Part shown: piece after piece, positions 3 through 18,362 of the stretch
Position numbering within the stretch: the first letter of the stretch is position 1
Layout of the letters: the number at the start of each line of letters is the position of its first letter
Origin: an uncultured virus (IMG/VR IMGVR_UViG_3300025759_000075)
Taxonomy: Duplodnaviria > Heunggongvirae > Uroviricota > Caudoviricetes
DNA: 20,000 bases
Direction: 5' to 3' (one strand)
IMG/VR virus record: IMGVR_UViG_3300025759_000075
Location: 55,940 to 75,939 of that record
Translations under genes and position numbers: made by a program
The notes under the pieces: model-generated
The model's database searches: none
What the model saw: only the letters and a program-made list of their open reading frames with translations
Told to the model about the DNA's origin: nothing

Positions 3-524
3 TTTCCTCTGCCCGACGATTATGGCAGCTTTCCTATCAAGGGAGACGTGCAGGACTATACGACGTGGGCGTGGGGGTATCACCACTACACCGACCTCGA
101 TACGTTCCTGTTCGATCAGGCGCGCAACTTCAACGCACTACCGGGCGGCTGGATTATCTACGGCGACCTGATGCGGTTCTCGCCTGTTCCGGGTGAGACT
201 GTGCAGGCGCGCTTCCCGTATCTGACAAAGAACATCGTCCGTGCGTTTTCCACAGTTCCGAAAGAAGAGTTCACGGCAGACGACGATACGTTTCTTCTGC
301 CCGAACGCCTTCTGACGCTTGGACTCGTATGGCGCTGGCGCGAGAATAAAGGTCTTGCTAGCACTGGCGACCAGGAAGCGTATATCAAGGCTCTCGACGA
401 TTACGCAGCAAAGAGTAAGGGGCCGGTTGTGATCAGACGTAACGGCGCAAGGCACTTTCCAGGAACGCACGCCGCCTTTCCATGGCCCCTCGGTGAGGGT
501 GCCAATTACTGGCCCGCTGGCTGA
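3..524 (+). CDS. Putative head-to-tail adaptor / tail tubular protein A-like, 5' truncated
   Basis: The frame is open from base 3 (FPLPDDYG...). The C-terminal DDDTFLLPERLLTLGLVWRWRENKGL is typical of phage adaptor proteins, and the gene lies directly before the nozzle-like gene (TGATG overlap). Confidence 0.6.
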   Translation, partial: FPLPDDYGSFPIKGDVQDYTTWAWGYHHYTDLDTFLFDQARNFNALPGGWIIYGDLMRFSPVPGETVQARFPYLTKNIVRAFSTVPKEEFTADDDTFLLPERLLTLGLVWRWRENKGLASTGDQEAYIKALDDYAAKSKGPVVIRRNGARHFPGTHAAFPWPLGEGANYWPAG

Positions 525-2878: not shown

Positions 2879-3697
2879 TTGAAATCTCCTAAGCAGCCAA
2901 CTCCGCCAGATCCTAACGTGGTCGCGCAAGCCCAAGCCGGGATGAACATCGACACGGCTCTTGCTCAGCAGAGCCTCAACATGGTTGATACGGTGAACCC
3001 GTGGGGCACGACCAGCTATGCGCAAAACGGCCAGACAAGCTTTGTCGATAGCAACGGTCAGCGCGTTACGCTGCCGCGCTATACCCAAACCACTAACTTA
3101 TCGCCAGAACAACAGGCGATTTTCGACGCCTCGCAGGGCGCGCAGACGAACCTTGCCAATATCGCGCAGGAACAGTCTGGCCGTGTGCAGGAAACTCTTT
3201 CCGACCCGTTCCAGTTTACCAATCAGGATGCAGCCGATTGGGCCTATGATCTGGGCCAGTCACGCATTGCTCCCCAGCAGCAGCAGACCGAAGCCGCGCT
3301 TCGTGATCGGCTGATCAATTCCGGCATTCGCCCCGGCACACAGGCTTGGGATTCGGAGATGGCCCGCATGACGCAGGGCTTTAACGATCAGAACAACCAG
3401 TTAGCTTTGCAGGGCCGTGGACAGGCGTTTTCCGAGAACCTTGCCACGCGGAATCAGTCGCTTAATGAGTTGTCCGCGCTACTCTCCGGCTCGCAGGTAT
3501 CGAACCCTGCGCAGATGTCGTCTGCCACGCCTCAAGTAGGGGTCGGTGGGGTCGATTATTCCGGCATGGTCCAGAACAATTACAACAACCAGATGCAGCA
3601 GTATAACGCCCAGATGCAAAATCGCGGCGGTATGCTCGGTGGCTTATTTGGCTTGGCAGGCTCGCTTGGCGGCGCTGCTATTCGAAGGGGTTTCTGA
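2879..3697 (+). CDS. Putative DNA ejection / internal virion protein 1
   Basis: Q/N/A-rich with a Gly-rich hydrophobic C-terminus (GGMLGGLFGLAGSLGG). Preferred start is TTG 2879 (MKSPKQPTPPDP), with AGGA 8 nt upstream. ATG 2819 is an in-frame alternative. Confidence 0.6.
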   Translation: MKSPKQPTPPDPNVVAQAQAGMNIDTALAQQSLNMVDTVNPWGTTSYAQNGQTSFVDSNGQRVTLPRYTQTTNLSPEQQAIFDASQGAQTNLANIAQEQSGRVQETLSDPFQFTNQDAADWAYDLGQSRIAPQQQQTEAALRDRLINSGIRPGTQAWDSEMARMTQGFNDQNNQLALQGRGQAFSENLATRNQSLNELSALLSGSQVSNPAQMSSATPQVGVGGVDYSGMVQNNYNNQMQQYNAQMQNRGGMLGGLFGLAGSLGGAAIRRGF

Positions 3698-4461
3698 TGA
3701 TCCTCCCACAGTCTGCAATGGCCGCAGTCGATCCCGTAGCGCAGGCTTTGACGCCTGAAGCCGCGTTCACTTGGGCGCATGGTGGCTTGAAGATGACGCC
3801 GGAACAAGCGGCAATGCAGCGTCAACAGGGTATGGCGCGTAGCCGGGGTGATTACTCGCCTATCCAGCATTGGACACAGGGCCTTGCGCGTGTGGCGGAT
3901 AACGTCATGGGTGCACTAGAGGCACGTAAAGCCGACAAGCAGATTGCAGCGGGTGCAGATGCAGACCGCGCGCTGATGGAAGCGATTGCGGGCGGTGGTG
4001 TGGATGACACCATGATCGCCCGCGCACTAATGGACCCTAATGTAGGGCAGGGCGTGAAAGAGTTTGCGGGCATGGAGTATGCCGCGCGTAGGCCCAAGCA
4101 ACAGGCTCCGCTAGAGGTTGAGCGGCTAGCTATGCTGGCGAACGATCCCAGCGCAGCGCCTTACGTGCGCGAGGCAGCAGCGGCCAAGCTTCGCAATCAA
4201 AACGATCCGCTTATCACAACGACCTTGCCGGGTGACAGGTTCTATTCGGGGCCGCAATCCGGTCTGGCAGCAGCATTGGGAGGAGGTGGTCAAGAATCTG
4301 GGGCACAGTCTACGGCGGTGCCTCCCGAGGCGGTGGCGGACCTAATGGCCGATCCGTCACCGCAGGCTATGGCAGAGTTTGATGACGCATTCGGACAGGG
4401 TGCGGCAGAGCGCGCTCTAGGAGGTCAGGCGTCCGCGCCTGATCCCTTTCCCGCAAGTTAG
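3697..4461 (+). CDS. Putative DNA ejection / internal virion protein 2, 254 aa
   Basis: Ala/Gln-rich helical protein (IQHWTQGLARVA motif) within the ejection cluster, coupled to the upstream gene by TGATG. Confidence 0.6.
   Translation: MILPQSAMAAVDPVAQALTPEAAFTWAHGGLKMTPEQAAMQRQQGMARSRGDYSPIQHWTQGLARVADNVMGALEARKADKQIAAGADADRALMEAIAGGGVDDTMIARALMDPNVGQGVKEFAGMEYAARRPKQQAPLEVERLAMLANDPSAAPYVREAAAAKLRNQNDPLITTTLPGDRFYSGPQSGLAAALGGGGQESGAQSTAVPPEAVADLMADPSPQAMAEFDDAFGQGAAERALGGQASAPDPFPAS
4418..4453 (+). promoter_or_regulatory. Candidate +1 ribosomal frameshift signal (SD, hairpin, CCC.UUU.C)
   Basis: TAGGAGGT at 4418-4425, perfect hairpin TCAGGCG-tccg-CGCCTGA at 4425-4442, then in-frame CCC TTT CCC. 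The +1 frame is open into ATG 4469. Confidence 0.5.
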
Positions 4462-4468
4462 CGGAAAC

Positions 4469-4843
4469 ATGCTCGACAACATCACTATGCAGGCCGAAAG
4501 TAATGGCAGGCGTTATGGTGCAGGCGGTGGACTGCTGCGCTCACCTAAGGGAGCGATGGGGGAAATGCAGGTAATGCCAGCGACAGCCCGAGATCCCGGC
4601 TATGGCGTGCGCCCTTGGGACGGTTCGTCGCCGGATGATCTAGCCCGCGTTGGCCGCGATTATCGCAGGGCCATGGAGCGGGAGTTCGGCGGGGACTATG
4701 CGGCGATGTTCGGGGCTTATAACGCTGGGCCTGGCCGCGTAAGGCAATTGCTGGATCGTTACGGCGGCGACTGGTTGCGCTATGCTCCTGCTGAAACCCG
4801 TAACTATGTAAACAAAAACATGCGCGCTCTGAGGGGCAGATAA
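4469..4843 (+). CDS. Lytic transglycosylase (SLT domain), virion-associated, 124 aa
   Basis: Catalytic QAES, SPKGAMGEMQVMPATA, AYNAGPGRV and PAETRNYV motifs. Confidence 0.92.
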   Translation: MLDNITMQAESNGRRYGAGGGLLRSPKGAMGEMQVMPATARDPGYGVRPWDGSSPDDLARVGRDYRRAMEREFGGDYAAMFGAYNAGPGRVRQLLDRYGGDWLRYAPAETRNYVNKNMRALRGR

Positions 4844-7599
4844 TGGCTGAAAATCGTTTCCAGAAATATGTCCAGCCACAGCAGGGCGTAGTGTTCACCG
4901 ATCCGAACGCGGCGGCGGAGCAGCAGCGCGAAGAAGATCGCCTTGCGATGGATCGCGAGCGCATTAGGTTAGCTCGCGAAGCTGCCGACAGAGCAGCGGC
5001 TAACGACGCCATCACGCGCGAAGAAAAGGCTGCTGAAAAAGCGCAAGCTGACAAGGAGGCTGCGGCACTAGAGGCCGCGCAGCGTAGCCAAGTGCGCGAA
5101 ACTGCCGCTACTATGAGCACGGTTATCGAGAAAGCAAAGGAGGCGAAGCGTAGATCGAACGATTGGTTCGCTACTGGCTTTGGCGCGGAAACTGCTCTTG
5201 ATTGGGGCGGCTCGGCAGCGGCAGACGTTCGAGAACTGCTTGCGCCGATTAAGGCTAATCAGGCTTTCACCACGCTTCAGAAAATGCGCGAGGCTTCGCC
5301 AACTGGTGGCGCGCTTGGTGCGGTATCCGAACGCGAACTTGCCCTGCTTCAAAGCACGATCACCGGCCTTGAGCAGTCGCAGTCTGATGCGCAATTCCAG
5401 TATGCAATGGACGAGATTGTCCAGCGTTACACGCGCGCCCTTGCCGCGCTGGAAGATGGCGACCGCTATTACCGTGAAAACGGCTCGATGGAAGGCTATG
5501 TCGGCCCTTCAGATGAATATCTGAACAGCTACAATCCTGACAATCCAGAGCCTAGAGGAGCCGCGGGTTCCGGCGCTACGCAAACCAGCCTTGAACTGCC
5601 GCAGGAATACCAGGATCGTCACGCGGCCTATCTGCGCCAGAATTGGGGCAATATCACGCCTGATGGTTATGCGCAGTTCCGTGCTGGGCTTGATAACGAG
5701 TTCCCAGAGTACGGCTCGCCTAACCTTGAGGCATACCGCGATATTGTTCCCTCCTTCAACCAGATGGCGGCAGAGGGGCAACCTCCTGAAGCCGCAGGGC
5801 AGGTTCCTGCTGCAACGCGCGAACTGTCTGGATTCGATCAGTTCCGTAATAATATTATCTCAGACCCTTTAGGTACAGGGGTAACGTCCGCGATCAATAG
5901 TGCCACAGGCGGCCTTCCTGATTTGCTCGCGGGTCGCAGGTTGCAGGCGGCGGAAGAGCTTAACCCTAAAGCAGCCTTTGTGGGCGACCTTGTTGGCAGT
6001 ACGGCAGGATCTGCACTTTTTGGTAGCGGCCTGACTGTTGCGGGGGCGGGCAAGTTCGCTCCGTTTCTCGGTGATGCGCTTTACGGGACAATGTACGGCG
6101 CAACCAGCGATGAAGACCCTGTAACTGGCGCATTGCTTGGCTTAGGTTCGTCTATAGTGGGCGACCAGGCTGGTAAATACGCGGGCCGTGCAATCAACTC
6201 GATCCGTCTGCCTGATATGAACCTTTCCGAAGGGCAGCGGGTCATTACCCAGACGGTGCGCGAAGCGGGTAATCAGGATGAAATCGCACGCGCGCTAATG
6301 AGCGCCGATGAACTTGGCGTGCCGATGACGCTGGCCGACGCATCTCCTGAATTACAGTCTCTTGCCGGTTCGGCAGTTCGCTTCTCTCCGACCACGGCGG
6401 GCGTAGCGCGGCAGACCATGGCGCGCAGGAACGAAGGCCAGTTTGACCGGCTTGCCGAGGCAGTGGCGCGTGATCTTGGCCCGGTTGAGAATATCCCTCA
6501 GCGCAGCGCCGATCTATTGCAGCAGGCACGCACTAATGCAGGGCCGTTGTATGAGCAGGCTTATGCGGCTCCAGGTGCGGATATGGTGGACCTTACCGAC
6601 CTTGCCGACCGTCCGACATTCGAAAAGGCATTGCGCGAAGCCTATAACGAGGTGCTTGACGAAGGTCTTGACCCGTCTGCCGCTGGCATTGTCCAGACTG
6701 AAGGTGGCATGGTCATGGCCTCGCCGTCATGGCAGTCCTTGGACTATGCGAAGCGCGGTCTGGACAACATTATTGAACGCGGTATTCGGCAAGGCGATAT
6801 GCCGGAAGTACGCCGTGCACAGGCTATGAAATCAACCCTATTGCAGCGCATGGATGAAGCCAATCCCGCCTATGCGGAGGCTCGTCGCGCTTATGCAGGG
6901 CCAGCGCAGGAGCGTTCGTTTATGGAGCGTGGACGCAACGTGTTCAAAGAAGATTCCGAACAGTTGGGCGTGGATATAGCCAATCTGACGCCGGAACAAA
7001 TCGGCCAAACGAGGCTCGGCGTTCAAAGCGGCACGATGCGCGAGGCGCGCAAGGTGCGGAACAACGGCAACCCGTGGGGTAGAATGGACAACCCTGAACG
7101 GGAAGCCATCTATAAAAATGTCTATGCCAGCGCCGAAGATGCCGACATCGCGCGGCTGCTGTCTCAGCGGGACCTGGAACTTCAGCTTGCAGGAAGCGCC
7201 AATCGTCTCATTGGCAACAGCGCCACGGCGGAACGCGAGATTCAAGACGAGTTCTTCAAGCATCGCACCGGCATGGGCGGCGATGTCGCAATGGGTATTG
7301 TTGAAACCGGCGCGCTCGGTGGGCCGTGGCTGACCGTAGGCAAAGGTATTGCAGATCGCGTGTTCAAGGATCGTCGCGAAAAAGCTGCAGCAACCGCAAA
7401 CCGCGCACTAGCCGACGATCTTGGCCCGCTGTTGCTCAATCAGTCGCCTACAAGCTCGGTTGATGCCTTGTCGCAGATGATGGCTGAGGATGAAGCCTAT
7501 CGCGCTATTGCGGAAAGCCTGACGCAGCAGGGTGACATGTGGGGCCGCCGTATCGGAACAGGGGCAGCTACGGCGCTAACCGATTACCTGGCTTACTAA
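4843..7599 (+). CDS. Large DNA ejection / internal virion protein, 918 aa
   Basis: Long Ala-rich helical protein with a GGALGAVSEREL motif, a central Gly-rich hydrophobic stretch and a GNSATAER motif. It is the last gene of the ejection cluster. Confidence 0.7.
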   Translation: MAENRFQKYVQPQQGVVFTDPNAAAEQQREEDRLAMDRERIRLAREAADRAAANDAITREEKAAEKAQADKEAAALEAAQRSQVRETAATMSTVIEKAKEAKRRSNDWFATGFGAETALDWGGSAAADVRELLAPIKANQAFTTLQKMREASPTGGALGAVSERELALLQSTITGLEQSQSDAQFQYAMDEIVQRYTRALAALEDGDRYYRENGSMEGYVGPSDEYLNSYNPDNPEPRGAAGSGATQTSLELPQEYQDRHAAYLRQNWGNITPDGYAQFRAGLDNEFPEYGSPNLEAYRDIVPSFNQMAAEGQPPEAAGQVPAATRELSGFDQFRNNIISDPLGTGVTSAINSATGGLPDLLAGRRLQAAEELNPKAAFVGDLVGSTAGSALFGSGLTVAGAGKFAPFLGDALYGTMYGATSDEDPVTGALLGLGSSIVGDQAGKYAGRAINSIRLPDMNLSEGQRVITQTVREAGNQDEIARALMSADELGVPMTLADASPELQSLAGSAVRFSPTTAGVARQTMARRNEGQFDRLAEAVARDLGPVENIPQRSADLLQQARTNAGPLYEQAYAAPGADMVDLTDLADRPTFEKALREAYNEVLDEGLDPSAAGIVQTEGGMVMASPSWQSLDYAKRGLDNIIERGIRQGDMPEVRRAQAMKSTLLQRMDEANPAYAEARRAYAGPAQERSFMERGRNVFKEDSEQLGVDIANLTPEQIGQTRLGVQSGTMREARKVRNNGNPWGRMDNPEREAIYKNVYASAEDADIARLLSQRDLELQLAGSANRLIGNSATAEREIQDEFFKHRTGMGGDVAMGIVETGALGGPWLTVGKGIADRVFKDRREKAAATANRALADDLGPLLLNQSPTSSVDALSQMMAEDEAYRAIAESLTQQGDMWGRRIGTGAATALTDYLAY

Positions 7600-8722: not shown

Positions 8723-10515
8723 TGGCTGTCATTCCTCCCAGAGACTTGAACGCGGCAGCTTCGGTTTCCGATACTGATGTTCTAATCGTCGACAAAGGGT
8801 CTTCGGTTGAAAAGGCCCTGCCGTCACAGATCGTGGATGCGGCTATTCCCTTGGCCTCACAGGTCGAAGCTGAGGCTGGAACTGACAACGCCAAACGCGT
8901 CACGCCGCTACGGGTCAAGCAGGCGATCGATGCCATTGGTGTTTCTGCGGATTCTCTGGCTGCTGGATTGGCAACCCGCGTTTCGACCTCTGCACTGGCC
9001 GATCCTGAAGGTGCTGCGCTAGCGGGCTTTAAACAGCTCGGTGTCGGTGCGGCGAACAGAAACGTACTGGAGAAACTGCGAGACACCATAAGCGCCAAGG
9101 ATTTCGGCGCAGCGGGTGACGGCGTGACGAATGATACACCTGCGCTTCAGGCTGCGATTGACAGCTTCGGCGCTGGTGGCGGTACGGTTATCGTTCCGTA
9201 CGGGATGCGCTGCCTGGTCGACGCCAGCCTGACCGTGAAGTCCAACGTCTCACTGGTTGGACCGCACGAATATATCGGGTCGCCCAACAATAATACGGAC
9301 GCGCCCTACGGCAGTGTCGGCGGGGCTCTGATCGTCAATTCCAGCGCGACAATCACCCTGAAGGGCGGCGCGTCTTTGAAGGGCCTGCTAATCTACCGCA
9401 AGGGCATGACGTTCCCTGCGGCGAACTCGTCTGCCTTCGCTGGCACGGCGGTAACGATTGGCGGCGATGATGCCGCCGCTTCCTGCTCCATGATCCTTGG
9501 GTTCGAAAAGGCCGTCCTTAGCGATGGATACCAGCGCCCCCGCTTCTACAATTTGTGGCTGGATAACGTCAACGGCATTTCGATAACCGATGCCTATGAC
9601 ATCCCGCGCATCGAAAATGTGCATTGCTGGCCTTTCGCCACGATTGAGCAATATGCCATTGACCTCTTGCCCTCGCAACTACAGCGCAGCGGCACGGCGT
9701 TCCTGCTTGAAGGGGTGTCGGATTGGGTCAAGCTGAATAACTGCTTCGCCTATGGCTATTCGCGCGGGTTCGATCTTAACAACGTCAACACGCCCACGCT
9801 GGTTAGCTGCACCGTGGACGGCACGGCCCCACCTAATGTGCTGGCAGGTTCGCGCGGTTTCTCGATTCGTGGCACGTCCTATGACGCAAAGCTTATCGGG
9901 TGCCAGGCTGCGAGTCAGGAAATCGGGTTCTATCTCGACACGGACGCGAATATCCAGAACCAGCTCATCGATTGCATCGCTTGGAACGGCACCAGCCACG
10001 GCTTCTTTATCGGGTCGGGCGATTGGGTGTTTATGGGTGGCGCTACGCGACAAGTCTCGAACGGTATTCTTTACAACAATGCCGCATCGCGGGTGACGTT
10101 GCGCGGGTTTCAGTTCGGGGCCTCGCTTACCAACCCGATTAACCTCAACGTCACGCCGACTACCGGCTTCGTGGACTTCGACGGGGTGCAGGCCCCATCG
10201 GTTGCGGCGGGCGGTACGTTGGTTGCGGGCACCTCTGCCACAATCTCGGTGGCATCCGCGCAGCCATTGCTTGTCCCCGCGACGGGGCGGGCTTTCAACA
10301 TTACCGGAAGCACCAACTTTAGCAACCTGCAAAGCGGGTGGGCGGGGCGTGAAGTTACGCTGATTTTTACTGGCGCGCTGACCGTTGTGAGCGGTACGGG
10401 CGCACCCGACGCCATTCGCCTGAAGGGAAATTCCAACTTTACCACCACGGCGGGCTCTACTTTGACCTTGTGGCATAACGGTACGCAATGGTATGAAAAA
10501 TCAAGCGCGGCATGA
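8722..10515 (+). CDS. Tailspike / depolymerase with pectate-lyase-3-like right-handed beta-helix, 597 aa
   Basis: EKLRDTISAKDFGAAGDGVTNDTPALQAAID motif, followed by beta-helix-like repeats and a C-terminal beta domain. Confidence 0.85.
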   Translation: MAVIPPRDLNAAASVSDTDVLIVDKGSSVEKALPSQIVDAAIPLASQVEAEAGTDNAKRVTPLRVKQAIDAIGVSADSLAAGLATRVSTSALADPEGAALAGFKQLGVGAANRNVLEKLRDTISAKDFGAAGDGVTNDTPALQAAIDSFGAGGGTVIVPYGMRCLVDASLTVKSNVSLVGPHEYIGSPNNNTDAPYGSVGGALIVNSSATITLKGGASLKGLLIYRKGMTFPAANSSAFAGTAVTIGGDDAAASCSMILGFEKAVLSDGYQRPRFYNLWLDNVNGISITDAYDIPRIENVHCWPFATIEQYAIDLLPSQLQRSGTAFLLEGVSDWVKLNNCFAYGYSRGFDLNNVNTPTLVSCTVDGTAPPNVLAGSRGFSIRGTSYDAKLIGCQAASQEIGFYLDTDANIQNQLIDCIAWNGTSHGFFIGSGDWVFMGGATRQVSNGILYNNAASRVTLRGFQFGASLTNPINLNVTPTTGFVDFDGVQAPSVAAGGTLVAGTSATISVASAQPLLVPATGRAFNITGSTNFSNLQSGWAGREVTLIFTGALTVVSGTGAPDAIRLKGNSNFTTTAGSTLTLWHNGTQWYEKSSAA

Positions 10516-10547
10516 TCGCCGGCTCGTATCGAAGGAAAATGACATGA
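10512..10547 (+). CDS. Possible 11-aa coupling micro-ORF (MIAGSYRRKMT)
   Basis: ATGA overlaps with both the tailspike stop and the next start. Confidence 0.25.
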   Translation: MIAGSYRRKMT

Positions 10548-10648
10548 AACACTACGCCGTATCGTCCATGTTCTACGCAACCCGCAAACCCAAGCCCCTG
10601 CCGCCTGTGCTTCAGCCGAAGCCGTTTGTCGACGACGCGCGGGGATGA
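10544..10648 (+). CDS. 34-aa Pro/Lys-rich microprotein
   Basis: GAAGGA SD; sequence MKHYAVSSMFYATRKPKPLPPVLQPKPFVDDARG; ATGA overlap with the next ORF. Confidence 0.45.
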   Translation: MKHYAVSSMFYATRKPKPLPPVLQPKPFVDDARG

Positions 10649-10737
10649 AAACTATTCTCGCCGTGATCGGTCTGCTATGGATCGTGAGTAGCCTGGAGCG
10701 TCACCGGCGCTTCTGGGCGACGGCGAGGCTCTGGTGA
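10645..10737 (+). CDS. 30-aa hydrophobic microprotein
   Basis: Sequence MKTILAVIGLLWIVSSLERHRRFWATARLW; coupled by ATGA upstream and TGATG downstream. Confidence 0.5.
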   Translation: MKTILAVIGLLWIVSSLERHRRFWATARLW

Positions 10738-11087
10738 TGCCGGATTCAGGAAACGCAGAACAAATCAGAATGGTTGCCGAGCAAGTGGCGGACACAGCCA
10801 TATCTCGGTTCGCGTCGCAACATCCCGAGATAAGAAGGGGCACCGTGGTTTCTGAAATACCCGCACCACTAAAGTGGGCGGCTGCTGTGGTCGCAGCCCT
10901 ATTCACCGCGGGGACTGCAACCCTCGCATTCTGGTTGTTCAATTCGGTTTCGCTGATGAGCGTCACCTTGGCGCGCATGGACGAGCGCATGGCCAATTAC
11001 GCCACCGCCCAGGAGGCTCGGATCGACCAGCTTGAAGGTCGGGTCGAAGGGCTGGAATTATATCACCGACAGGGACCTGTGAGATGA
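10737..11087 (+). CDS. Single-TM plus coiled-coil membrane protein of the lysis region (holin/antiholin-like)
   Basis: TM segment WAAAVVAALFTAGTATLAFWLF followed by a heptad-like tail, immediately upstream of the holin and endolysin. Confidence 0.6.
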   Translation: MPDSGNAEQIRMVAEQVADTAISRFASQHPEIRRGTVVSEIPAPLKWAAAVVAALFTAGTATLAFWLFNSVSLMSVTLARMDERMANYATAQEARIDQLEGRVEGLELYHRQGPVR

Positions 11088-11428
11088 AATGGACCGAATT
11101 TCTCCGCGGACACAACGGCGGACTGGAGATCAATCGGCTTGTTGGCTTCATCGGCGGTGTTGCCTACATCGCCAGCGCCATCACGTTCCAATGGTGGAAC
11201 TGGGCAACCTTCGACGTCACGGCCTTCTGCCTAGCCTTCTCTGGCGGCTTGTCGGTCATCGTGGGTGGCACGGCTGGCGCGGTGGCCCTGAAGGATCGGC
11301 AGGTAGCTTCTGCCGCTGTCATCGCCGAAACAGGCAGCAAACCTGCCAAGCCCCCTGCACCCGCTCCGAAGCCGCAAGAGGGGCTGGATGATGGGGCAGA
11401 AGACAAGCGGCCTCCGTATGCTCGGTGA
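11084..11428 (+). CDS. Putative holin (two TM segments, charged Pro-rich tail), 114 aa
   Basis: Two hydrophobic helices; directly precedes and overlaps the endolysin. Confidence 0.6.
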   Translation: MKWTEFLRGHNGGLEINRLVGFIGGVAYIASAITFQWWNWATFDVTAFCLAFSGGLSVIVGGTAGAVALKDRQVASAAVIAETGSKPAKPPAPAPKPQEGLDDGAEDKRPPYAR

Positions 11429-12203
11429 ACCGCAATGGGCCTTAATCTTTGGCGCGGCCCGCAAGCGCGGAGCAACGTGGGATGACCTCGCAGACGTAAA
11501 CGCCTTCAAGCGCGAGATCGAGGTGGCCTTGGATGACGGCACCATCATCGTCACGGGGAACAAGCCCCCCGAAGTCCTGCCATGGGCAGACATGCTTGCC
11601 AGCATCACGAACACGAACGCCCCAGCCCTCACGCAAGACGATTACGAGCGCGCCGCCGTCGAGTTGGGCAATGGTGTCACCCCCAAGCACATGCGTGCCA
11701 GCAAGACGGTTGAGGCGCCGCGTGGGGCATTCGATGACAATGGCCGGCCTTCGATCCTCTACGAGCGCCACGTATTCGCCCGCAACACCACGCCCAAGGG
11801 GCGGTTCAATTCATCCTACCCCGACCTGTCGGCCATCCGTGGCTATGGTGCAGGCGGCTATGGGCCGTTCTCGTCGCAATACACCAAATTGCAGCGCGCC
11901 TACGCGCTAGATCCGGAATCGGCTTTTGAGGCGTGTTCATGGGGCGCGTTTCAGGTGCTTGGTGAGAATGCGGTGCAACTAGGTTATGCGTCTGCCCGCG
12001 ATATGGCCTGCGAACTGGCCAAGAGCGAAGCGGCGCACCTCGATAGCTATGTGCGATTCATCAAGGTCAATGGACTGGCAGACGAACTAGGCAGATGCCG
12101 CGCTGGCGATCCTGAAAGCTGCATACCCTTTGTCGAGCGATACAACGGCAGCGGGTTTCGCAAATTCAGTTACCATGTCAAATTCGCGGAGGCTCTGCTA
12201 TGA
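11388..12203 (+). CDS. Endolysin, N-acetylmuramidase (DUF3380-type)
   Basis: Motifs VE(A)...F...GRPSILYERHVF, SWGAFQVLGEN and YNG. The start is uncertain (11388, 11391 or 11418). Confidence 0.88.
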   Translation: MMGQKTSGLRMLGEPQWALIFGAARKRGATWDDLADVNAFKREIEVALDDGTIIVTGNKPPEVLPWADMLASITNTNAPALTQDDYERAAVELGNGVTPKHMRASKTVEAPRGAFDDNGRPSILYERHVFARNTTPKGRFNSSYPDLSAIRGYGAGGYGPFSSQYTKLQRAYALDPESAFEACSWGAFQVLGENAVQLGYASARDMACELAKSEAAHLDSYVRFIKVNGLADELGRCRAGDPESCIPFVERYNGSGFRKFSYHVKFAEALL

Positions 12204-12289
12204 ACGATAGGCTATGCAAAGCAATGCCCACGATAGCCCTTGCGCTGACCTGCTTGGCGCTTGGCCTGTTTATAGGAGTTACGGCATGA
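12200..12289 (+). CDS. 29-aa single-TM microprotein in the lysis cassette
   Basis: GGAGG SD 7 nt upstream; sequence MNDRLCKAMPTIALALTCLALGLFIGVTA; ATGA overlaps at both ends. Confidence 0.6.
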   Translation: MNDRLCKAMPTIALALTCLALGLFIGVTA

Positions 12290-12545
12290 TTGCGGAAGTA
12301 GCTACCCTTTACGAAACCAACGCGCGTTCGATTCCTGACATGCTTCGCCAAGCGGCGGATAGCATCGAAGAGGAAGCCAGCGAAGATTGCTCACCGACCG
12401 TTGCCATGGTGGCTGTCCAAATATCAGAAAGCGGTCAGGTGCATGTTTATGGATGGGGCGACACTGATGACCTCCGCGCTATTGGCCTAATGGAGCGCGG
12501 AAAGCATAGCCTCTTGGCTTCTATCGAGGAACTTACGGCATGATT
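12279..12545 (+). repeat. 13-bp direct repeat TTACGGCATGATT at 12279-12291 and 12533-12545
   Basis: Exact copies span the start codons of two consecutive genes. Confidence 0.8.
12286..12543 (+). CDS. Hypothetical phage protein, 85 aa
   Basis: AGGAG SD before ATG 12286; ATGA coupling at both ends; acidic and apparently soluble. Confidence 0.7.
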   Translation: MIAEVATLYETNARSIPDMLRQAADSIEEEASEDCSPTVAMVAVQISESGQVHVYGWGDTDDLRAIGLMERGKHSLLASIEELTA

Positions 12546-12911
12546 ACCACATTCTTTGCCTCGACCATCAATAAGGTATTCGCAGGTGTCGTTCTCGCGC
12601 TTCTGGTGGCCCTTGGGATAGCCATGTGGTCGAACGCCCGCAAGGACGCCACAATTGAAACCCTGCGCAACGCAGTGGCCGTCTCGGAGGCACAGCATAG
12701 CGTAACCGCTGCATCACTGGACTCACTGACCCGCCGCATGAAGGAGCTTGTCGAACAAGGGCAGTTGCGGGAAAGCCTGCTAGCCGAAGCCATGAAGGAA
12801 GCGGAAGAAGAAACGTCCGAATTGCAGGACGAAGCCGACGCCCTACGCAAGGAAGGTGTTACCGACCAGTGTGTGACGCCCGCTGGGGTGCTTCGAAGCC
12901 GTGGCTTGTGA
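12540..12911 (+). CDS. Inner-membrane spanin (Rz-like), 123 aa
   Basis: N-terminal TM, long coiled coil and a C-terminal Cys (DQCVTP); lies downstream of the endolysin. Confidence 0.75.
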   Translation: MITTFFASTINKVFAGVVLALLVALGIAMWSNARKDATIETLRNAVAVSEAQHSVTAASLDSLTRRMKELVEQGQLRESLLAEAMKEAEEETSELQDEADALRKEGVTDQCVTPAGVLRSRGL

Positions 12912-13029
12912 TGCTGCGGCGGGTCAGGATTTGAACCTGAGACTGACCCGCCTTCGATCCACTAGGGCCATCGACGCAGCGCTCTATCCTACAGGGCTTG
13001 GCTCCCTTCTGAGCTACGCCGCCGCAGCA
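12912..13029 (-). ncRNA. tRNA-like structured element (remodelled or pseudo-tRNA), 118 nt
   Basis: Minus strand shows terminal stem TGCTGCGGCGG/CCGCCGCAGCA, TA-GCTC-AG...A-GAGC D arm, and perfect T arm TCAGG-TTCAAAT-CCTGA. The D loop and anticodon arm are enlarged, and there is no CCA. Confidence 0.65.
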
Positions 13030-13041
13030 AGGAGAAACTAG

Positions 13042-13311
13042 ATGAAACGCATCGCCATCGCAAGCCTGTTGTTGCTTTCCGCCTGCAATCACCCGCAGCC
13101 TGGAATTGAGATACGTGAAATCCCGGTTGTCGTACCATCCCCTTGCTTGGCCAAAGACGACATCCCACCCGAACCAGCCCAAGTAGGCGACCAGCTAACC
13201 GGCAATGCCGCGTCAGACCTGCTTATCGTGGCGGCGTCTGCGCTGGAATTGCGGGCGGCGGTTATCACGATGAGAAGCGCGCTTTTGGCTTGTGCGGAGG
13301 GTGAGGGTTAG
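13042..13311 (+). CDS. Outer-membrane lipoprotein spanin (Rz1-like), 89 aa
   Basis: AGGAGA SD; signal peptide with lipobox LSAC; Pro-rich mature region with further Cys residues. Confidence 0.8.
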   Translation: MKRIAIASLLLLSACNHPQPGIEIREIPVVVPSPCLAKDDIPPEPAQVGDQLTGNAASDLLIVAASALELRAAVITMRSALLACAEGEG

Positions 13312-13568
13312 CTGTTCCTGTAGGCGCTATATGCGTCCGCAACATCGGCAAGAGCGTTGGCGTGGAACCCTTCGTCAATGGCACTGTAATGTTCAGCGCG
13401 TTTGCGAAGGTCGGCCACGACAATAGCGATAGCGGCGTCTGCGTCAGGCAGCCAGCAATCAACCATCTCAGCCACGTCTGTTTCAGACAAGCTTGGGAAG
13501 TTCCGGCGGATCATCGCCTTCGCCACTTCATCCCTAAGCATACCACACTCCTTCCCCTGCGCCGTCAT
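13308..13568 (-). CDS. Hypothetical phage protein, 86 aa (last gene of the leftward operon)
   Basis: ATGA coupling to the upstream gene; its stop overlaps the convergent o-spanin stop. Confidence 0.7.
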   Translation of the reverse strand: MTAQGKECGMLRDEVAKAMIRRNFPSLSETDVAEMVDCWLPDADAAIAIVVADLRKRAEHYSAIDEGFHANALADVADAYSAYRNS

Positions 13569-13885
13569 CCGGCATTCTCGGTTAGTATGCCAGAGGGTTT
13601 GGGCGCATGAACCGCGCTTTCGTCCTTCGGATCGAGCCCTTCGGTCTCGCCGGTTCCCGCTTCAATCGCTTGCGCGAGTATCCGGCTCAGCTCGGGGTCT
13701 GGCTTAGGCGGGTGGCACCATTCGCAAGGGCGGATGCATAAACAAGAACCCTCGCCTTCATCGTAGGTGTCGCATTGCCAATCCCACGAGCATCCGTAGA
13801 TAAAGCCTTCGCCGTGGCAATTCGCGCAATCGCTTTCATCAAAATCCCAGTAGGGGTCATCCCCCCGCTCAATACCAATCGGCAT
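13565..13885 (-). CDS. Cys-rich acidic protein (CxxCxGxG zinc-finger-like), 106 aa
   Basis: GGAG SD before ATG 13885; motifs CANCHGEG and CLCIRPCEWC. The C-terminal tail is encoded by structured element A. Confidence 0.65.
   Translation of the reverse strand: MPIGIERGDDPYWDFDESDCANCHGEGFIYGCSWDWQCDTYDEGEGSCLCIRPCEWCHPPKPDPELSRILAQAIEAGTGETEGLDPKDESAVHAPKPSGILTENAG
13603..13675 (-). repeat. Structured element copy A (73 nt, multi-hairpin, GAA triloops)
   Basis: Minus strand reads GCGCA A GCG ATTGAAG CGG-GAA-CCG G CGAG AC C-GAA-G GG CTCG A TCC-GAA-GGA CGAAAG CGC GGTTCA TGCGC. It is homologous to 14095-14166. Confidence 0.8.
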
Positions 13886-14183
13886 CGGTCTGCTCCATAA
13901 AACCAAGGGGGTAATTTTCTGGCAAGGGCATCCAAATGGCACCGCGCAGAAAATCATCGCCCAGAGGAAAGGCGTCTTCGCCATCAAGCGGACCATCGTC
14001 GCTCATCATCGCAAGGGATGACGAGCAGCCATCATCGCAGACTATGACAACCTTTTGCCCTGGTTGCGGCGGGTCGATTTCCCAAGACGCCCACGCGTCA
14101 GGGATTGAAGCCTTTGGTGGAGACGGCACGGCTCCATCGCGAAGCGACGAAAGCCCGCCCGGACGCACATCATCCTTATCCAT
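13869..14183 (-). CDS. Hypothetical protein, DUF551-like, 104 aa
   Basis: W...PP.PGQKVVIV...WMPLPE pattern; TGATG coupling. The N-terminal extension is the antisense reading of element B. Confidence 0.6.
   Translation of the reverse strand: MDKDDVRPGGLSSLRDGAVPSPPKASIPDAWASWEIDPPQPGQKVVIVCDDGCSSSLAMMSDDGPLDGEDAFPLGDDFLRGAIWMPLPENYPLGFMEQTDADWY
14095..14166 (+). repeat. Structured element copy B (72 nt), inverted relative to copy A
   Basis: Plus strand reads GCGTC A GGG ATTGAAG CC-TTT-GG T GGAG AC G-GCA-C GG CTCC A TCGC-GAA-GCGA CGAAAG CCC GCCCG GACGC. Confidence 0.8.
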
Positions 14184-14335
14184 CACACCCTCCCTCCGTT
14201 AAGCGCATCCAGAGCGGCTTTAAGCAAAGACCTGCGGGGTGTTTCCATGGGCAATATCCGCCCGGTGTAGCGATGACCTCCGCCGAATGCGTGGGGATCG
14301 CGATTAGTGCGGGTAAGGCGTTCTATGCGGCTCAC
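14183..14335 (-). CDS. 50-aa basic microprotein, FGGG..Y..RILPME family copy 1
   Basis: GTGA coupling; paralogous to 15724-15864. Confidence 0.65.
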   Translation of the reverse strand: MSRIERLTRTNRDPHAFGGGHRYTGRILPMETPRRSLLKAALDALNGGRV

Positions 14336-14637
14336 TTTGCGGCTCCTTTCAGGGATCGGATGGCTTGGGCAACATCGTTGCAAGCCTCATTGTAGATGTC
14401 GGGCCGCATGTCTCCAGCAGACGCAGAGGCATCAACGTAGTGCTGCGCATAGCGTTCGCCTTCAGCAGACTCCGCCGCCCGCTCGTATGCCTCTCGCACC
14501 TGTTCCTCCAACCGAGTGTTACGGGCTTCGAGTGCGGCGATGTGGTCGCGGGCAGCAAGGAACGTGCACTCAGGGCGACCGCACTTGCAATCGAGCAAGA
14601 CAAGCATGTCCTGCGTCTGCTGTGCTAGATCACTCAC
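14332..14637 (-). CDS. Hypothetical coiled-coil protein, 101 aa
   Basis: GTG start overlaps the upstream stop; contains AARDHIAALEARN...IRSLK. Confidence 0.65.
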   Translation of the reverse strand: MSDLAQQTQDMLVLLDCKCGRPECTFLAARDHIAALEARNTRLEEQVREAYERAAESAEGERYAQHYVDASASAGDMRPDIYNEACNDVAQAIRSLKGAAK

Positions 14638-15239
14638 TGGCCTGATCCTTCGTTGAGTAGGTTGTCGATGCGAGTGATAGCCTCCCATGCGATTGCATCG
14701 TTCATTTCATGCCCACCGCCGGGGTCGCCTTCGCAAACCGCACAGCCACGACAATTGTTGCTTATGCGCTCCAGATACTCCCTCACTGTCATGAACCCTT
14801 CCCGCTCTCGCGTGGGGGCGGATAGGGCGGCGCAAGAGGGGCATGGCAGACCTAAATCAGACGGCAGCATGGTGCGGTGGCCAACGGGTGGATCGACTGC
14901 ATAAACTCGAGCGGCTTCACGCGCCGCTGCCACCTTGTCGGCTTCGGTTTCGCAGGCGTCCTTATCCCAAGCCAGTTTTGCCAAAAGGCCCGTTGCCGCC
15001 TCGACGTTTGCCACCCAGTCGGCAAACTCATCCCGATAGCGGTCGTCGTCCCATTCATACGGCCCGCGCCCTTCCAGCAGCCAGCGATGCCCGTTGAGCG
15101 CGCGTTTAATGTGGCCAAGTGCGATTGCCACAATGTAGCGATCACGGTCGAGCAGATGGCGCATGTCTTCCAACCCCGCCGCGCTCGGCTCGGTCTTGGC
15201 GGATTTCAGCATTTCTCCTGCTTTGTTACCATCGGTCAT
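14634..15239 (-). CDS. Hypothetical phage protein, 201 aa, with CxxC motifs
   Basis: GAGG SD and ATGA coupling; contains WLLEGRGPYEWDDDRYRDEF, CPSC and CRGCAVC. Confidence 0.7.
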   Translation of the reverse strand: MTDGNKAGEMLKSAKTEPSAAGLEDMRHLLDRDRYIVAIALGHIKRALNGHRWLLEGRGPYEWDDDRYRDEFADWVANVEAATGLLAKLAWDKDACETEADKVAAAREAARVYAVDPPVGHRTMLPSDLGLPCPSCAALSAPTREREGFMTVREYLERISNNCRGCAVCEGDPGGGHEMNDAIAWEAITRIDNLLNEGSGQ

Positions 15240-15724
15240 GTGTTATTTCCTCGTCTGGCGAGACTAACGGCACGGTGACGCAAATTCTTGCATGCCTTGC
15301 ATCTCTTATATCCCGTCTTTTTGTTTATATATGTATTCTCTGGCGTGTACTCGTGGCCCCGTCCACAATGGGTCATCCCCTGAGTGGCCATCTTCCTAGA
15401 AATGCCACTGTTGCCCCTCTGAATGTTCACAATGTGGGTAACGGGCTCAAGGTGTTCTGGATTGCAACACGCCCGATTGCGGCACAAGTGGTCAACTACT
15501 AAGTCTGTAGGAACCCGCCCCTTAGTAAGATGGTAGGCAAATCGGTGAGACGATACCCGACCGAGCGGCTTGAAGTTGAATGACCCATAGCACTTAGGAT
15601 TTAGATAGCCTTTCCACATCCAGCATTGGTCGCGCGTTCCGCGGTCTATTTTTGACCAAAACCTATCCTTCACTTTTTGCGAGATCGCTTCTGGGTCTGG
15701 GATGGGTTTGATTTTAATAGGCAT
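15236..15724 (-). CDS. HNH (His-Me finger) endonuclease, 162 aa
   Basis: CWMWKG...HRFAY...VVDHLCRNRACCNPEHLEPVT...N, plus a C-terminal THCGRGH...RCKAC zinc motif. The DNA is visibly more AT-rich than its neighbours. Confidence 0.92.
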   Translation of the reverse strand: MPIKIKPIPDPEAISQKVKDRFWSKIDRGTRDQCWMWKGYLNPKCYGSFNFKPLGRVSSHRFAYHLTKGRVPTDLVVDHLCRNRACCNPEHLEPVTHIVNIQRGNSGISRKMATQGMTHCGRGHEYTPENTYINKKTGYKRCKACKNLRHRAVSLARRGNNT

Positions 15725-15864
15725 CACCTCGATCCTTTAAATATCCGCGCAAACAGTCCGGGCCTCTCCATGGGCAGGATGCGCGCGTTGTAGTGGTAGC
15801 CGCCGCCAAAGTTCTGGCGGGGTGCGAACCTGTGGCTGCGTTCGTATGTGTGCGAGCGGGTCAT
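15724..15864 (-). CDS. 46-aa basic microprotein, FGGG..Y..RILPME family copy 2 (absent from the ORF track)
   Basis: Sequence MTRSHTYERSHRFAPRQNFGGGYHYNARILPMERPGLFARIFKGSR; ATGA and TGATG coupling. Confidence 0.7.
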   Translation of the reverse strand: MTRSHTYERSHRFAPRQNFGGGYHYNARILPMERPGLFARIFKGSR

Positions 15865-16196
15865 GATGCGCCTCGGGCTTTGGCGATGGCGGCGCGGGCG
15901 CGTCGCTCACACTGTCCCTTGATCGTGAATCCGCCATGCTCGCGCAGGCATTCCTCCAGCGCTTCCAGTAATTCCGGTGCGGCTGCGATTAGGCGAGCGT
16001 TTGCCTCCCAAGGATCCGTCCCGGCTTCACGATGCTTGGCCAGCGTGATTGCATCCCTCGCTTCCGGATCAGAGGCTTGGCAGATGATGCCTCCACGGAA
16101 TTGCCCCTGCTCGGTGACAGGTGCGCGGACACAACCCCAATCGTCATACTCATCGGGTCGGTAAGCCCACGGTCCCGGCGTGTGGTTCGTTCCCAT
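15861..16196 (-). CDS. Conserved phage protein (HTPGPW...ANARLIAAAPELLEAL type), 111 aa
   Basis: Carries these widespread phage early-gene motifs. Confidence 0.8.
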   Translation of the reverse strand: MGTNHTPGPWAYRPDEYDDWGCVRAPVTEQGQFRGGIICQASDPEARDAITLAKHREAGTDPWEANARLIAAAPELLEALEECLREHGGFTIKGQCERRARAAIAKARGAS

Positions 16197-16197
16197 C

Positions 16198-16386
16198 TCA
16201 AACACTCCCTGCCATTGATTGTGCGTCGTCTATGGATATGCCCTGCGCTGCCAGCGATCGCACAAGTGCGGCAAAGGCGTCTGCATGTCGCTGCTCGACC
16301 TCGGGATATTCGCCTGTGCCGTCTGCTGCCATTTCCACGGCCAGGTTGGCGTCCTTCATTTCGAGATAGGCTTCCTTGATGGTCAT
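16198..16386 (-). CDS. Hypothetical protein, 62 aa
   Basis: AGGA SD and ATGA coupling. Confidence 0.65.
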   Translation of the reverse strand: MTIKEAYLEMKDANLAVEMAADGTGEYPEVEQRHADAFAALVRSLAAQGISIDDAQSMAGSV

Positions 16387-16754
16387 GGCTGCTTCCTTTT
16401 GGCGAGGATGGCGCGAAGGCCAGCCAATGCATTGGCTTGTTGATCGATGAGGCTGCGGAGATTGCCTTTGGCGTCCCGCATCTCTGCGTTGGACAGGGCG
16501 TCATACGCCGCAGGGAAAAGTCGTACCGCCTCCATCGCCTCATCCAGTTGAGCACGTAGGTCTGCTATCTCTGCCGTGAGGGGGCGGGCGGCTTCGGTGC
16601 GGTGGCGGGCAAAGGCTTTGACGATGGGAAAGTGGTCACCTTGTCCCAGCCGAATTTCTTTGGCCTGCCAGTCTTGGCCACCGGCTTCCAAAAGACGAAC
16701 TGCACCATTCCGATCAGCCTGCGTCACCTCCGGCACGTCCTTGGTCCTATCCAT
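16383..16754 (-). CDS. Hypothetical phage protein, 123 aa
   Basis: AGGAGA SD before ATG 16754; contains VTQADR...VKAFARHR and a coiled coil. Confidence 0.7.
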   Translation of the reverse strand: MDRTKDVPEVTQADRNGAVRLLEAGGQDWQAKEIRLGQGDHFPIVKAFARHRTEAARPLTAEIADLRAQLDEAMEAVRLFPAAYDALSNAEMRDAKGNLRSLIDQQANALAGLRAILAKRKQP

Positions 16755-17172
16755 GGGTTTCTCCTGTGGGGGTTTCGGTGTGTTCTTTTCGAATTTCGCG
16801 CTCACGGATAAAAATCCGGTCTAGGGTATCATGCGGAACCAGCTCAATCACCGCTCTACGGAAGGCGTCTGCATCTTGAATATCGTGCATCCGCTGATTG
16901 ATAAGCGTGAGACGCTTCTGGATGCTCTGATGCTTTAAACCCAACGCCTCGACAGACCGCTTATCCCCCTCAGCTTTCGCTCCCATCAATTCATTCTGAA
17001 TGCGGACAAGCTCGGTTACCAATTGCCGTCTCTCGCTAAGGCATTCATCCTTGGAATAGTTCGCAGCCGACTGAATTAGGTCATCTTCAGCGACGAAACC
17101 CGCCTGAGCCACGGGAGCAACAACAGTTCGGCGCGCCCTACGCTGAAGGCTGCGTGATGTGCCTTTATACAT
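16747..17172 (-). CDS. Hypothetical coiled-coil protein, 141 aa
   Basis: GGAGG SD before ATG 17172; helical and charged. Confidence 0.7.
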   Translation of the reverse strand: MYKGTSRSLQRRARRTVVAPVAQAGFVAEDDLIQSAANYSKDECLSERRQLVTELVRIQNELMGAKAEGDKRSVEALGLKHQSIQKRLTLINQRMHDIQDADAFRRAVIELVPHDTLDRIFIREREIRKEHTETPTGETHG

Positions 17173-17173
17173 A

Positions 17174-17473
17174 TCAGGCCTCCATCCAATTCCGCCTGCG
17201 CGGATCAACGCCGTGATAAGCACGCATAGCCGCAGCATGGTGTTCCGCGTCGAAAACGTCCTGACGTTCGATCATCTCCCGCAGTTCCGCGTCGTCTCCC
17301 GTGTCGATTGCAGCCTGTGCTTCATCCATCCACTGTTGGCGGGTGAAGAGAGGGTAATCGGCCTTGGGGAGGTCGCCTGAGAGGATGGCGTAAGCACGCT
17401 CGCGGTGCGGCAAGCTGCGGGCCGTCTGGTTGTAGGCGGTTAGGGCGCGGGTGAGCGGGGTTACGGCGTTCAT
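17174..17473 (-). CDS. Hypothetical protein, 99 aa
   Basis: GGAGG SD and ATGA coupling. Confidence 0.7.
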   Translation of the reverse strand: MNAVTPLTRALTAYNQTARSLPHRERAYAILSGDLPKADYPLFTRQQWMDEAQAAIDTGDDAELREMIERQDVFDAEHHAAAMRAYHGVDPRRRNWMEA

Positions 17474-17799
17474 GCCAGACCTCCGCGCGGGCATTCCCAG
17501 TCGCATTCTTCGGATCCTGCCTTTGAGCAGTAACCGTCCGGCATCATCCCACAGTCGAAGTTATTCCGGCAATGCTCCCACGTCTCGCCGCAGCAATCGC
17601 AAAGACCATCATCATCCTCTGGTCCGCAATGATATTCGGCAACCGCTTCAGCGTCCGGATAGCCACACTGGCGGCATTCGTCGGGAAGGTGAGCGCCATC
17701 TTCCAGCCACTCCGATCGAGCGATAAGACCGCCGCAGGAAGGGCACCAATGTCCATCCTCGTTGACAGACCAGCAAGCCACTTCGTCATCCAACGTCAT
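17470..17799 (-). CDS. Cys-rich acidic zinc-ribbon-like protein, 109 aa
   Basis: Motifs CPSCG, CRQCG, CDCC and CSKAGSEECDWEC; ATGA coupling. Confidence 0.7.
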   Translation of the reverse strand: MTLDDEVACWSVNEDGHWCPSCGGLIARSEWLEDGAHLPDECRQCGYPDAEAVAEYHCGPEDDDGLCDCCGETWEHCRNNFDCGMMPDGYCSKAGSEECDWECPRGGLA

Positions 17800-17990
17800 G
17801 CGCCTTGCTCCAGCGCGAGATCCGCGTCTTCTACCGCCTCGGCAGCCTTGCGAAGGTGATCCTGCGCGCAGATGGATGAGTCCAGAACTGCATCAATCAG
17901 TTCATAAGCCTGCTTGAGGCGGCTGTCGTACCAATCGGTGGATTGGCTCTGCACCCCACCCTCGGCGCGTTCGATCTTGGAGGGGGTCAT
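17796..17990 (-). CDS. Hypothetical protein, 64 aa
   Basis: GGAG SD and ATGA coupling at both ends. Confidence 0.6.
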   Translation of the reverse strand: MTPSKIERAEGGVQSQSTDWYDSRLKQAYELIDAVLDSSICAQDHLRKAAEAVEDADLALEQGA

Positions 17991-18208: not shown

Positions 18209-18265
18209 CGGTGAAACTCCCACCCGACAGATCTGCGGGATGCAGTCCTTCGTCGGTGTGGGGCC

Positions 18266-18356: not shown

Positions 18357-18362
18357 CTGGTT

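Follow-up and report, generated by a model that had tools for sequence, protein, structure and literature searches.

The 20,000-nucleotide (nt) stretch of an uncultured caudoviricete genome analysed here (IMG/VR record IMGVR_UViG_3300025759_000075, positions 55,940 to 75,939; hereafter the window) holds, at the junction between the gene of a 254-amino-acid (aa) virion protein (P0001) and the open reading frame (ORF) of an SLT-type lytic transglycosylase (P0002), a compact cassette consisting of GGAGG, a hairpin and UUU_C. Judging from the sequences of this junction and its relatives, the cassette is probably the site of a programmed +1 ribosomal frameshift on UUU_C, stimulated from the 5' side, which fuses the SLT domain to the virion protein. 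Ribosomes translating the 254-aa gene would reach UUU 4447-4449 in the P site, where, in a fraction of them, tRNA-Phe (anticodon GAA) would re-pair one base forward, moving onto UUC (onto another UUU in the variants in which a stop codon follows). The shifted ribosomes would then read the +1 frame up to 4843 and yield a 381-aa protein with a C-terminal SLT domain, while the unshifted ones would terminate three codons later and yield the 254-aa form.

The anatomy of the junction had been laid out in a sequence-only reading of the window, whose positions for the Shine-Dalgarno (SD) element, the hairpin, UUU_C, the stop codon and the ORFs are all exact to the base. GGAGG belongs to TAGGAGGT at 4418-4425, and the TAG within it is the last stop codon of the +1 frame, so that this frame is open from 4421; the SLT ORF can be read from the slip site, as had been claimed, and the computed translation in which TTTC is taken as one step gives a 381-aa product that contains the junction peptide predicted there. 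Folding confirms the hairpin, described as having seven perfect pairs at 4425-4442 and as extendable to 9 base pairs (bp) with one G-U, the extension being made by G4424-U4443 and G4423-C4444. The 35-nt segment 4418-4452 folds at -19 kcal/mol, against -8.6 +/- 2.2 kcal/mol for its shuffles (z = -4.65; 0/200 shuffles as stable), and the codons 3' of the hairpin are GAT CCC TTT CCC GCA AGT TAG. The catalytic Glu, said to lie 10 residues into the SLT ORF, is indeed residue 10 of P0002 (codon 4496-4498), and the ATG at 4469, to which a poor SD had been ascribed, is preceded only by GGAA and separated from the 0-frame stop by a gap of 7 nt. GGAGG alone is not enriched in the window (40 sites, with 40.6 expected), so the weight of the argument comes from conservation and not from a single copy. 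Since contigs from four freshwater metagenome runs of four studies (two of them possibly the source) carry the junction without substitution or indel, it is not an assembly error. No Rfam family was matched, the best match (E = 0.99) being far under the gathering scores.

Conservation was assessed through an SLT protein search followed by an alignment of eight SLTs, which led to 212 loci with a tblastn match. These collapse to 153 distinct junctions, 2 of them too short; those with an SLT at 50% identity or more to one of the eight family SLTs, 74 in number, were kept, and 77 distant ones, mostly cellular SLTs of alphaproteobacterial genomes, were dropped (the 50% cut-off, as well as the use of first-ATG ORF starts, is our choice). 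A UUU_C cassette with the SLT in +1 is present at 44 of the 74 junctions, and a cassette in which UUU is followed by a stop codon (UUU_UGA in five, UUU_UAA in one), again with the SLT in +1, at 6; another 21 are in-frame fusions, and in three the SLT is encoded by a separate gene that has an ATG of its own. The conservation of motif and frame in homologues, on which the sequence-only reading had staked its proposal, is thus found at 50 of the 74 related junctions. Among the split junctions, the +1 relation with a cassette holds in 50 of 53 and the -1 relation in none (0/53). In all 50 cassettes the 0-frame ORF is open over at least 188 codons upstream, and its stop lies 0-10 codons past UUU, mostly 1-3.

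The cassette is spread over diverse proteins: those upstream fall into 18 clusters at 40% identity, pairwise identity among the SLT domains goes down to 44%, and one cassette is located in a Sphingobium faniae prophage (L243). GGAGGT, the hairpin, GATCCCTTTC and the +1 relation are preserved in every one of the close relatives of P0001, which come from viral and metagenome contigs and have 57-83% protein identity to it. In the comparison with three relatives of 64-68% overall DNA identity, the 32-nt core 4419-4450 is in the top five of 1115 windows ranked by conservation (97-100% identity); in the three other relatives compared the hairpin is rewritten. In the metagenome assemblies, a co-occurring and otherwise diverged phage has the same 32-mer.

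Some observations on the distribution of the cassette stand apart from the survey. The identical 32-mer is a fork in the assembly graphs of metagenome runs. The 75.9-kb virus record holds, besides the module at 3697-4461 of the window, a second, diverged one (G000:C1:18675-19367, L012), at 67% protein identity and also with a cassette, and the same pair of modules is found on another public contig of 80.6 kb; the virus record may join two related phage genomes. A blastn search of the region against the phage collection gave no match, and patterns drawn from the P0001 alignment found no relative in genome contigs. With a degenerate DNA pattern of the cassette, 118 stretches were retrieved from viral contigs, and 10 loci among them also encode P0001 or SLT relatives (L062, L075, L086, L104, L108, L123, L136, L165, L167 and L168); the remaining stretches, without such relatives, look like chance matches. 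A covariance model of the 8-bp hairpin class (R1) is too short to discriminate, so its results are uninformative either way: the window's own cassette scores only 7.2 bits (E about 4), no match was found in G000 and two Sphingomonadaceae genomes, and the best match in the window (14146-14197, minus strand), which begins at a GGGAGG ~4-9 nt upstream of a GTG-started ORF (14186, minus), was read as an ordinary SD.

The sequence and spacing of the elements are strongly constrained. GGAGG is exact in 49 of the 50 cassettes, and its distance to UUU is 25 nt in 37 of them, 22 nt in nine, 28 nt in three and 26 nt in one. All 50 have the hairpin, built from 44 distinct spacer sequences: the stem starts 0-2 nt past GGAGG, comprises 6-9 pairs around a loop of 3-5 nt (often GCAA) and ends 4-6 nt before UUU, in such a way that, once it is closed, 4-8 unpaired nt are left between GGAGG and UUU. 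The median minimum free energy of the 44 spacers is -13.4 kcal/mol, compared with -6.9 for dinucleotide shuffles, and 27 of the 44 are matched by no more than 1% of their shuffles; for 9350 windows of the same length in the upstream ORFs the median is -3.9, and in any gene at most 2.7% of them are as stable as the cassette spacer.

Covariation was counted in the 8-bp (20 spacers) and 7-bp (14 spacers) classes, the 10 spacers of the 22-nt, 26-nt and 28-nt classes being left out. In the former, standard pairs occupy 160/160 cells, every pair (8/8) has changed on both sides and 46 cells have done so; sliding the partner by 1-3 columns, as a control, leaves 21-67% of cells paired. In the latter, 99% of cells pair (31-40% in the control), with both-side changes at 4/7 pairs and in 10 cells. 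In neither class is the covariation score reached by any of 500 column shuffles. Compensatory changes are also seen in the window's own subfamily, where the second pair goes from C-G through U-G to U-A and the third from A-U to C-G, and two of its members have substituted an entirely different stem. The amino acids that the stem encodes change freely but its pairing persists, which indicates that the constraint acts on the RNA. Codon choice adds to the picture: GGA makes up 11.5% of Gly codons elsewhere in these genes, and TTT 35% of Phe codons, and yet each of them is fixed at its site in the cassette.

All 50 cassettes have UUU, with C as the next base in 44; in the other 6 a stop codon comes next. 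As for the codon before it, the sequence-only reading had taken the site to be CCC.UUU.C, of which UUU_C holds across the family and CCC does not: the latter belongs to the window's lineage, and GGC, GGG, AAC, ACC, AGC, ACG or CGG takes its place in 42 of the 50. Since UUU is invariant and the preceding codon variable, the slipping tRNA would be tRNA-Phe and not tRNA-Pro. UUU_Y is reported to be +1-prone in bacteria (PMC5009743), and for UUUC in the Mesorhizobium FseA gene +1 shifting of 4-13% is given (PMC4755241).

The same facts bear on whether the frame could be changed by another route, be it transcriptional slippage, a -2 shift or a slip of tRNA-Pro at CCC_U (4444-4447). CCC_U is a +1-prone context, and a slip on it would yield the same protein in the window; nevertheless, it is UUU and not CCC that the family conserves. 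Polymerase slippage would need a longer T run than the 3 found in the 44 UUU_C cassettes, and the DNA contigs have no length variation at the site, all of which makes such routes very improbable. No stimulatory structure is conserved past UUU (median z -0.09, 0/50 below -2) and a hungry codon in the A site does not appear to be general, so the stimulators would be expected 5' of the site.

Could the SLT domain be made with no change of frame at all? One can suppose that a free 124-aa SLT is produced from ATG 4469 by translational coupling, GGAGG and the hairpin being by-products of a conserved Gly/Ala-rich C-terminal peptide. An ATG does stand at that position in the window and in nine other cassettes, the gap between stop and ATG is typical of coupled genes, and the three family members with a separate SLT gene start it from their own ATG. 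Against this, in 16 of the 50 cassettes neither ATG nor GTG nor TTG occurs on the way from the shift site to the catalytic Glu, so that for them the frameshift would be the only route to the SLT domain, and in 15 more a start codon comes only 5 codons or fewer before Glu, where initiation would remove the conserved L-D-x-I-T helix. Five members have UUU_C leading directly into the L-D-x-I-T codons. A by-product of the peptide is also difficult to reconcile with stem pairing that outlasts the peptide, with the fixed minority codons GGA and TTT, and with the absence of GGAGG from the cassette position in 19 unrelated in-frame forms; in the window itself, moreover, ATG 4469 has no more than GGAA ahead of it. 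This explanation is quite unlikely. The SLT ATG singled out in the sequence-only reading exists in the window and is no feature of the family, given that ATG occurs at that position (that of M1 in the window) in only 10 of the 50 cassettes and the start is absent or displaced in the other 40. The dependence of the downstream ORF on the shift is therefore seen for the family and not for the window, where ATG 4469 is present.

Initiation can also be imagined through a split SD, as in phage T4 genes 38 and 25, with the hairpin bringing GGAGG near the SLT start for initiation or re-initiation. That mechanism has just such an anatomy, a hairpin behind a strong SD that lacks a start codon at the normal distance, and the window has a second weak stem (4451-4454/4461-4464) ahead of the ATG. 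Nonetheless, 26 nt remain between the hairpin and ATG 4469; what is fixed in the family is the distance from the SD to UUU, whereas that from the cassette to the SLT start varies (UUU to Glu, 8-19 codons among relatives); the start codon is missing or displaced in most members, and the region 3' of UUU lacks conserved structure. Initiation of this kind is hardly probable at all.

The in-frame relatives point again to the frameshift. In two of the in-frame fusions, L037 and L209, the linker is the same and is read without a shift, in agreement with the predicted junction, and by their sequences both look like cassettes minus one base: they keep GGAGG and TTT, with weakened stems (-8.6 and -5.6 kcal/mol). 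Among the remaining in-frame forms, GGAGG is found at the cassette position in 0 of 19. In distant relatives the N-domain of P0001 shares its reading frame with a muralytic domain, either SLT or phage lysozyme, and cultured Rauchvirus phages have the SLT within one 720-760-aa protein, all the cultured relatives found being in-frame; hence the fusion architecture is the norm, and the cassette one way of making it. Thus the covarying hairpin, the scarcity of usable SLT starts and the in-frame fusions matching the predicted junction lend comparative support to the +1 frameshift first proposed from the window alone.

How would the stimulation work? The GC-rich hairpin is expected to refold behind the ribosome, with its base beside the E site, where the SD:anti-SD helix of prfB acts, and GGAGG would pair with the 3' end of 16S rRNA and keep the 5' arm of the hairpin in place on the ribosome; the mRNA would thereby be pulled in the +1 direction as the stem closes. 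We infer that GGAGG and the hairpin each stimulate; that anti-SD pairing anchors the arm and stem closure does the pulling would accord with the idea, put forward in the sequence-only reading, that the hairpin collapses the distance between the SD and the shift site. Both that idea and the minority share of fused subunits expected in the same reading would be compatible with the geometry. The base of the stem lies 4-6 nt from the P-site codon, the location at which engineered refolding hairpins stimulate +1 shifting. Synthetic hairpins beside the E site are reported to stimulate +1 shifting on 70S ribosomes at ~60% of the SD effect (PMC6321510), and a position 5-6 nt from the P site has been described as possible for an SD duplex, as has a 5'-ward pull on the mRNA by stem closure (PMC3639245). 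We give about even odds to the further proposal that GGAGG and the hairpin together form a natural 5' stimulator in two parts, of an undescribed kind, in which an SD-anchored arm and stem closure behind the E site make UUU_C efficient without a hungry codon or a stop.

The unit might instead have another role, for example as a programmed pause that lets the nascent virion protein fold or assemble, or in the processing or stability of the mRNA, with UUU_C shifting weakly by itself. UUU_Y is described as shifting without stimulators in bacteria (PMC5009743), and internal SD-like sequences have been reported to slow ribosomes (bioRxiv 10.1101/2020.04.16.045807). A role of this sort is distinctly improbable, considering that the unit is confined to frame-change junctions (50/50 cassettes), that the hairpin has decayed in the two recent in-frame fusions and GGAGG does not occur at the cassette position in the 19 others, and that the fixed distance to UUU matches the site of synthetic-hairpin +1 stimulation; in addition, neither promoter-like nor terminator-like sites were found in 4200-4700.

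Several points weigh against a 5'-stimulated frameshift as we propose it. The loci are related, and locus counts therefore overstate the number of independent events. The role of GGAGG is deduced from its invariance and its position with respect to the hairpin, and it lies 22-28 nt from the shift codon (22 nt in the window), where the spacing of the prfB type is about 3 nt 5' of that codon. Translated, the cassette gives a conserved peptide (GG, 7-8 residues, F), and selection on the protein could account for some of its conservation. In general the codon that enters the A site after UUU is not a rare one, so a pause caused by a hungry or a stop codon would apply to only 6 of the 50 cassettes: CGC, the commonest codon of its family (39 per 1000), is used in 16, the CCC of the window stands at 8.5 per 1000 (versus 17 for CCG), and the idea of a hungry codon is not supported across the family. 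Lastly, because the window has ATG 4469, the fusion need not be the sole source of SLT here.

The six cassettes with a stop codon after UUU (L184, L198, L203, L216, L224 and L227) form a group of their own, with UUU_UGA_C or UUU_UAA_C behind the GGAGG-hairpin unit, that is, a stop codon in the A site and then C, which is the prfB arrangement, and with the cassette about 30-45 nt before the SLT Glu codon. Shifting in these six phages could respond to release-factor activity.

The elements of the cassette and the genes around them are listed in the table.

Table. Elements of the cassette and genes of its surroundings, in coordinates of the window
Feature	Position	Strand	Remarks
SU10-type adaptor	3-524	+	virion gene run
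Nozzle-like protein, 638 aa	524-2440	+	after the adaptor
Small acyltransferase, 134 aa	2437-2841	+	acyl-CoA N-acyltransferase-like, phrog_4470, E = 5e-20
Virion protein, 292 aa	2819-3697	+	
P0001, 0-frame ORF, 254 aa, frame 1	3697-4461	+	internal virion / ejection-type protein; short product if no shift occurs
TAG, last stop of the +1 frame	4418-4420	+	5' limit of productive shifting
GGAGG, internal Shine-Dalgarno-like element	4420-4424	+	codons GGA GGT = Gly242 Gly243
Hairpin, 7 perfect pairs, 4425-4431/4436-4442	4425-4442	+	loop UCCG; directly 3' of GGAGG, ends 4 nt before UUU
UUU_C, putative shift site	4447-4450	+	UUU 4447-4449, UUC 4448-4450
Predicted +1 reading from the shift site	4448-4843	+	7-codon linker, then SLT domain
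TAG, 0-frame stop	4459-4461	+	3 codons past UUU
P0002, SLT lytic transglycosylase ORF, 124 aa, frame 2	4469-4843	+	+1 relative to P0001
Ejection-like ORF, 918 aa	4843-7599	+	
Collar fibre and tailspike	downstream of the 918-aa ORF	+	

P0002 matches PF01464 (E = 2.5e-9, 37.2 bits, gathering cut-off 21.3), and the Glu-Ser catalytic motif is present, E267 being invariant and S268 nearly so in the alignment of SLTs (A5). The Pfam match starts at position 21 of the 117 of the profile on the fusion and at 22 on the free ORF, so nothing is gained by fusing as far as the profile is concerned. P0001 has neither a Pfam nor a PHROG match; a match to its residues 21-101 is found at the N-terminus of a lysozyme-domain protein (659 aa) from a Rhizobium phage.

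Regarding the neighbouring genes, the 638-aa ORF matches phrog_5107, labelled 'amidase' (E = 3e-150), and has no Pfam match; it occupies the nozzle/neck slot and its counterpart in relatives is annotated as 'neck protein', and the PHROG label may be misleading. The acyltransferase-like ORF lies within the virion block and overlaps both neighbours, with the same gene in the same place in Rhizobium phage RHph_I3_18. The end of the SLT ORF and the start of the 918-aa ORF overlap in TAATG (4840-4845), an ordinary stop-start coupling in a -1 relation and with no cassette. Past the tailspike, from 10500 to 20000, many of the longer listed ORFs are on the minus strand.

To our knowledge, programmed +1 frameshifts in bacteria are few, prfB being almost alone in having a defined 5' stimulator, and mRNA structures that push the frame forward from the exit side of the ribosome have so far been addressed with engineered hairpins only. 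For such structures, the 50 junctions, with their 44 hairpins and with sense-codon as well as stop-codon sites, amount to a natural mutagenesis series. If the unit does act as a two-part stimulator, the cassette would set the ratio of plain to enzyme-bearing ejection subunits and, in most members, would be the sole means of making a virion-borne lytic transglycosylase; it would also give the synthetic upstream-hairpin stimulators their first natural bacterial counterpart, one that is widespread among uncultivated podoviruses and occurs in the Sphingobium faniae prophage. For phage biology, the frameshift would offer these podoviruses a way to equip some copies of an internal virion protein with a cell-wall-cutting domain. 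For annotation, it would imply that many 'orphan' SLT ORFs that lack a start codon in viral contigs are parts of fusions, to be annotated as joined coding sequences.

The known systems share with the cassette one or another of its traits. In prfB, the gene of release factor 2 (RF2), the P-site tRNA likewise slips +1 on a U-rich codon and an internal SD is described as pairing with 16S rRNA (PMC5009743), and the prfB site, CUU_UGA_C, has its equivalent in the six family members with an A-site stop followed by C. Unlike the cassette, prfB has its SD 3 nt from the shift codon, instead of more than 20 nt away with a hairpin between; besides, most cassettes have a sense codon in the A site, and the outcome here would be a structural fusion and not the autoregulation of RF2. 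FseA (msi172-msi171), from a Mesorhizobium integrative and conjugative element, is similar in its UUUC, in the slip of tRNA-Phe from UUU to UUC, in its alphaproteobacterial setting, in the G-rich region upstream and in that both families include two-ORF and single-ORF variants; it differs in the protein, an unrelated transcription activator, and in that the passages covered here mention no covarying stem that would separate its G-rich element from the shift site (PMC4755241).

The synthetic refolding hairpins of the Chang laboratory resemble the cassette in placing a stable GC-rich stem by the E site, where it mimics SD:anti-SD pairing on the 70S ribosome, with an effect described as dependent on stability and proximity (PMC6321510, PMC3639245). 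As far as those accounts go, they are engineered, on a CUUUGA or Ty1-derived site, and make use of either an SD or a hairpin, whereas the cassette is natural and has both in a fixed order. In PA-X of influenza A the site UCC_UUU_CGU also shifts +1 on UUU_C followed by an Arg CGN codon (PMC5009743), and many cassettes are NNC_UUU_CGN; that system, as described there, is eukaryotic, has the rare codon CGU and lacks an SD or a 5' hairpin. PSA provides the example of a +1 shift near the end of a gene that gives a phage structural protein a C-terminal extension (PMC5009743), although it is described with a proline codon and a 3' pseudoknot or stop codon, in contrast to the Phe codon, the 5' stimulators and the lack of a 3' structure in the cassette.

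With respect to the protein, Bbp11 of Bordetella phage BPP-1 and gp040 of Caulobacter phage Jess A also carry an SLT in an internal virion or ejection protein whose gene follows that of the nozzle, with the difference that the domain lies in frame within one 720-760-aa protein; P0001 has no BLASTP similarity to Bbp11 (best E = 0.46). T7 gp16 is another podovirus internal virion protein with a muralytic domain. In the literature covered (subscription-only papers being outside its scope), we found no frameshift for podovirus SLT or internal virion proteins and no natural +1 stimulator that combines an SD and a hairpin. The UUU_C or UUU-before-stop site, stimulation by an SD (prfB) and stimulation by synthetic upstream hairpins are known singly; what appears to be new, from the comparison of these junctions, is that a large natural family combines them in a fixed way and that a frameshift would join a podovirus internal virion protein to a lytic transglycosylase.

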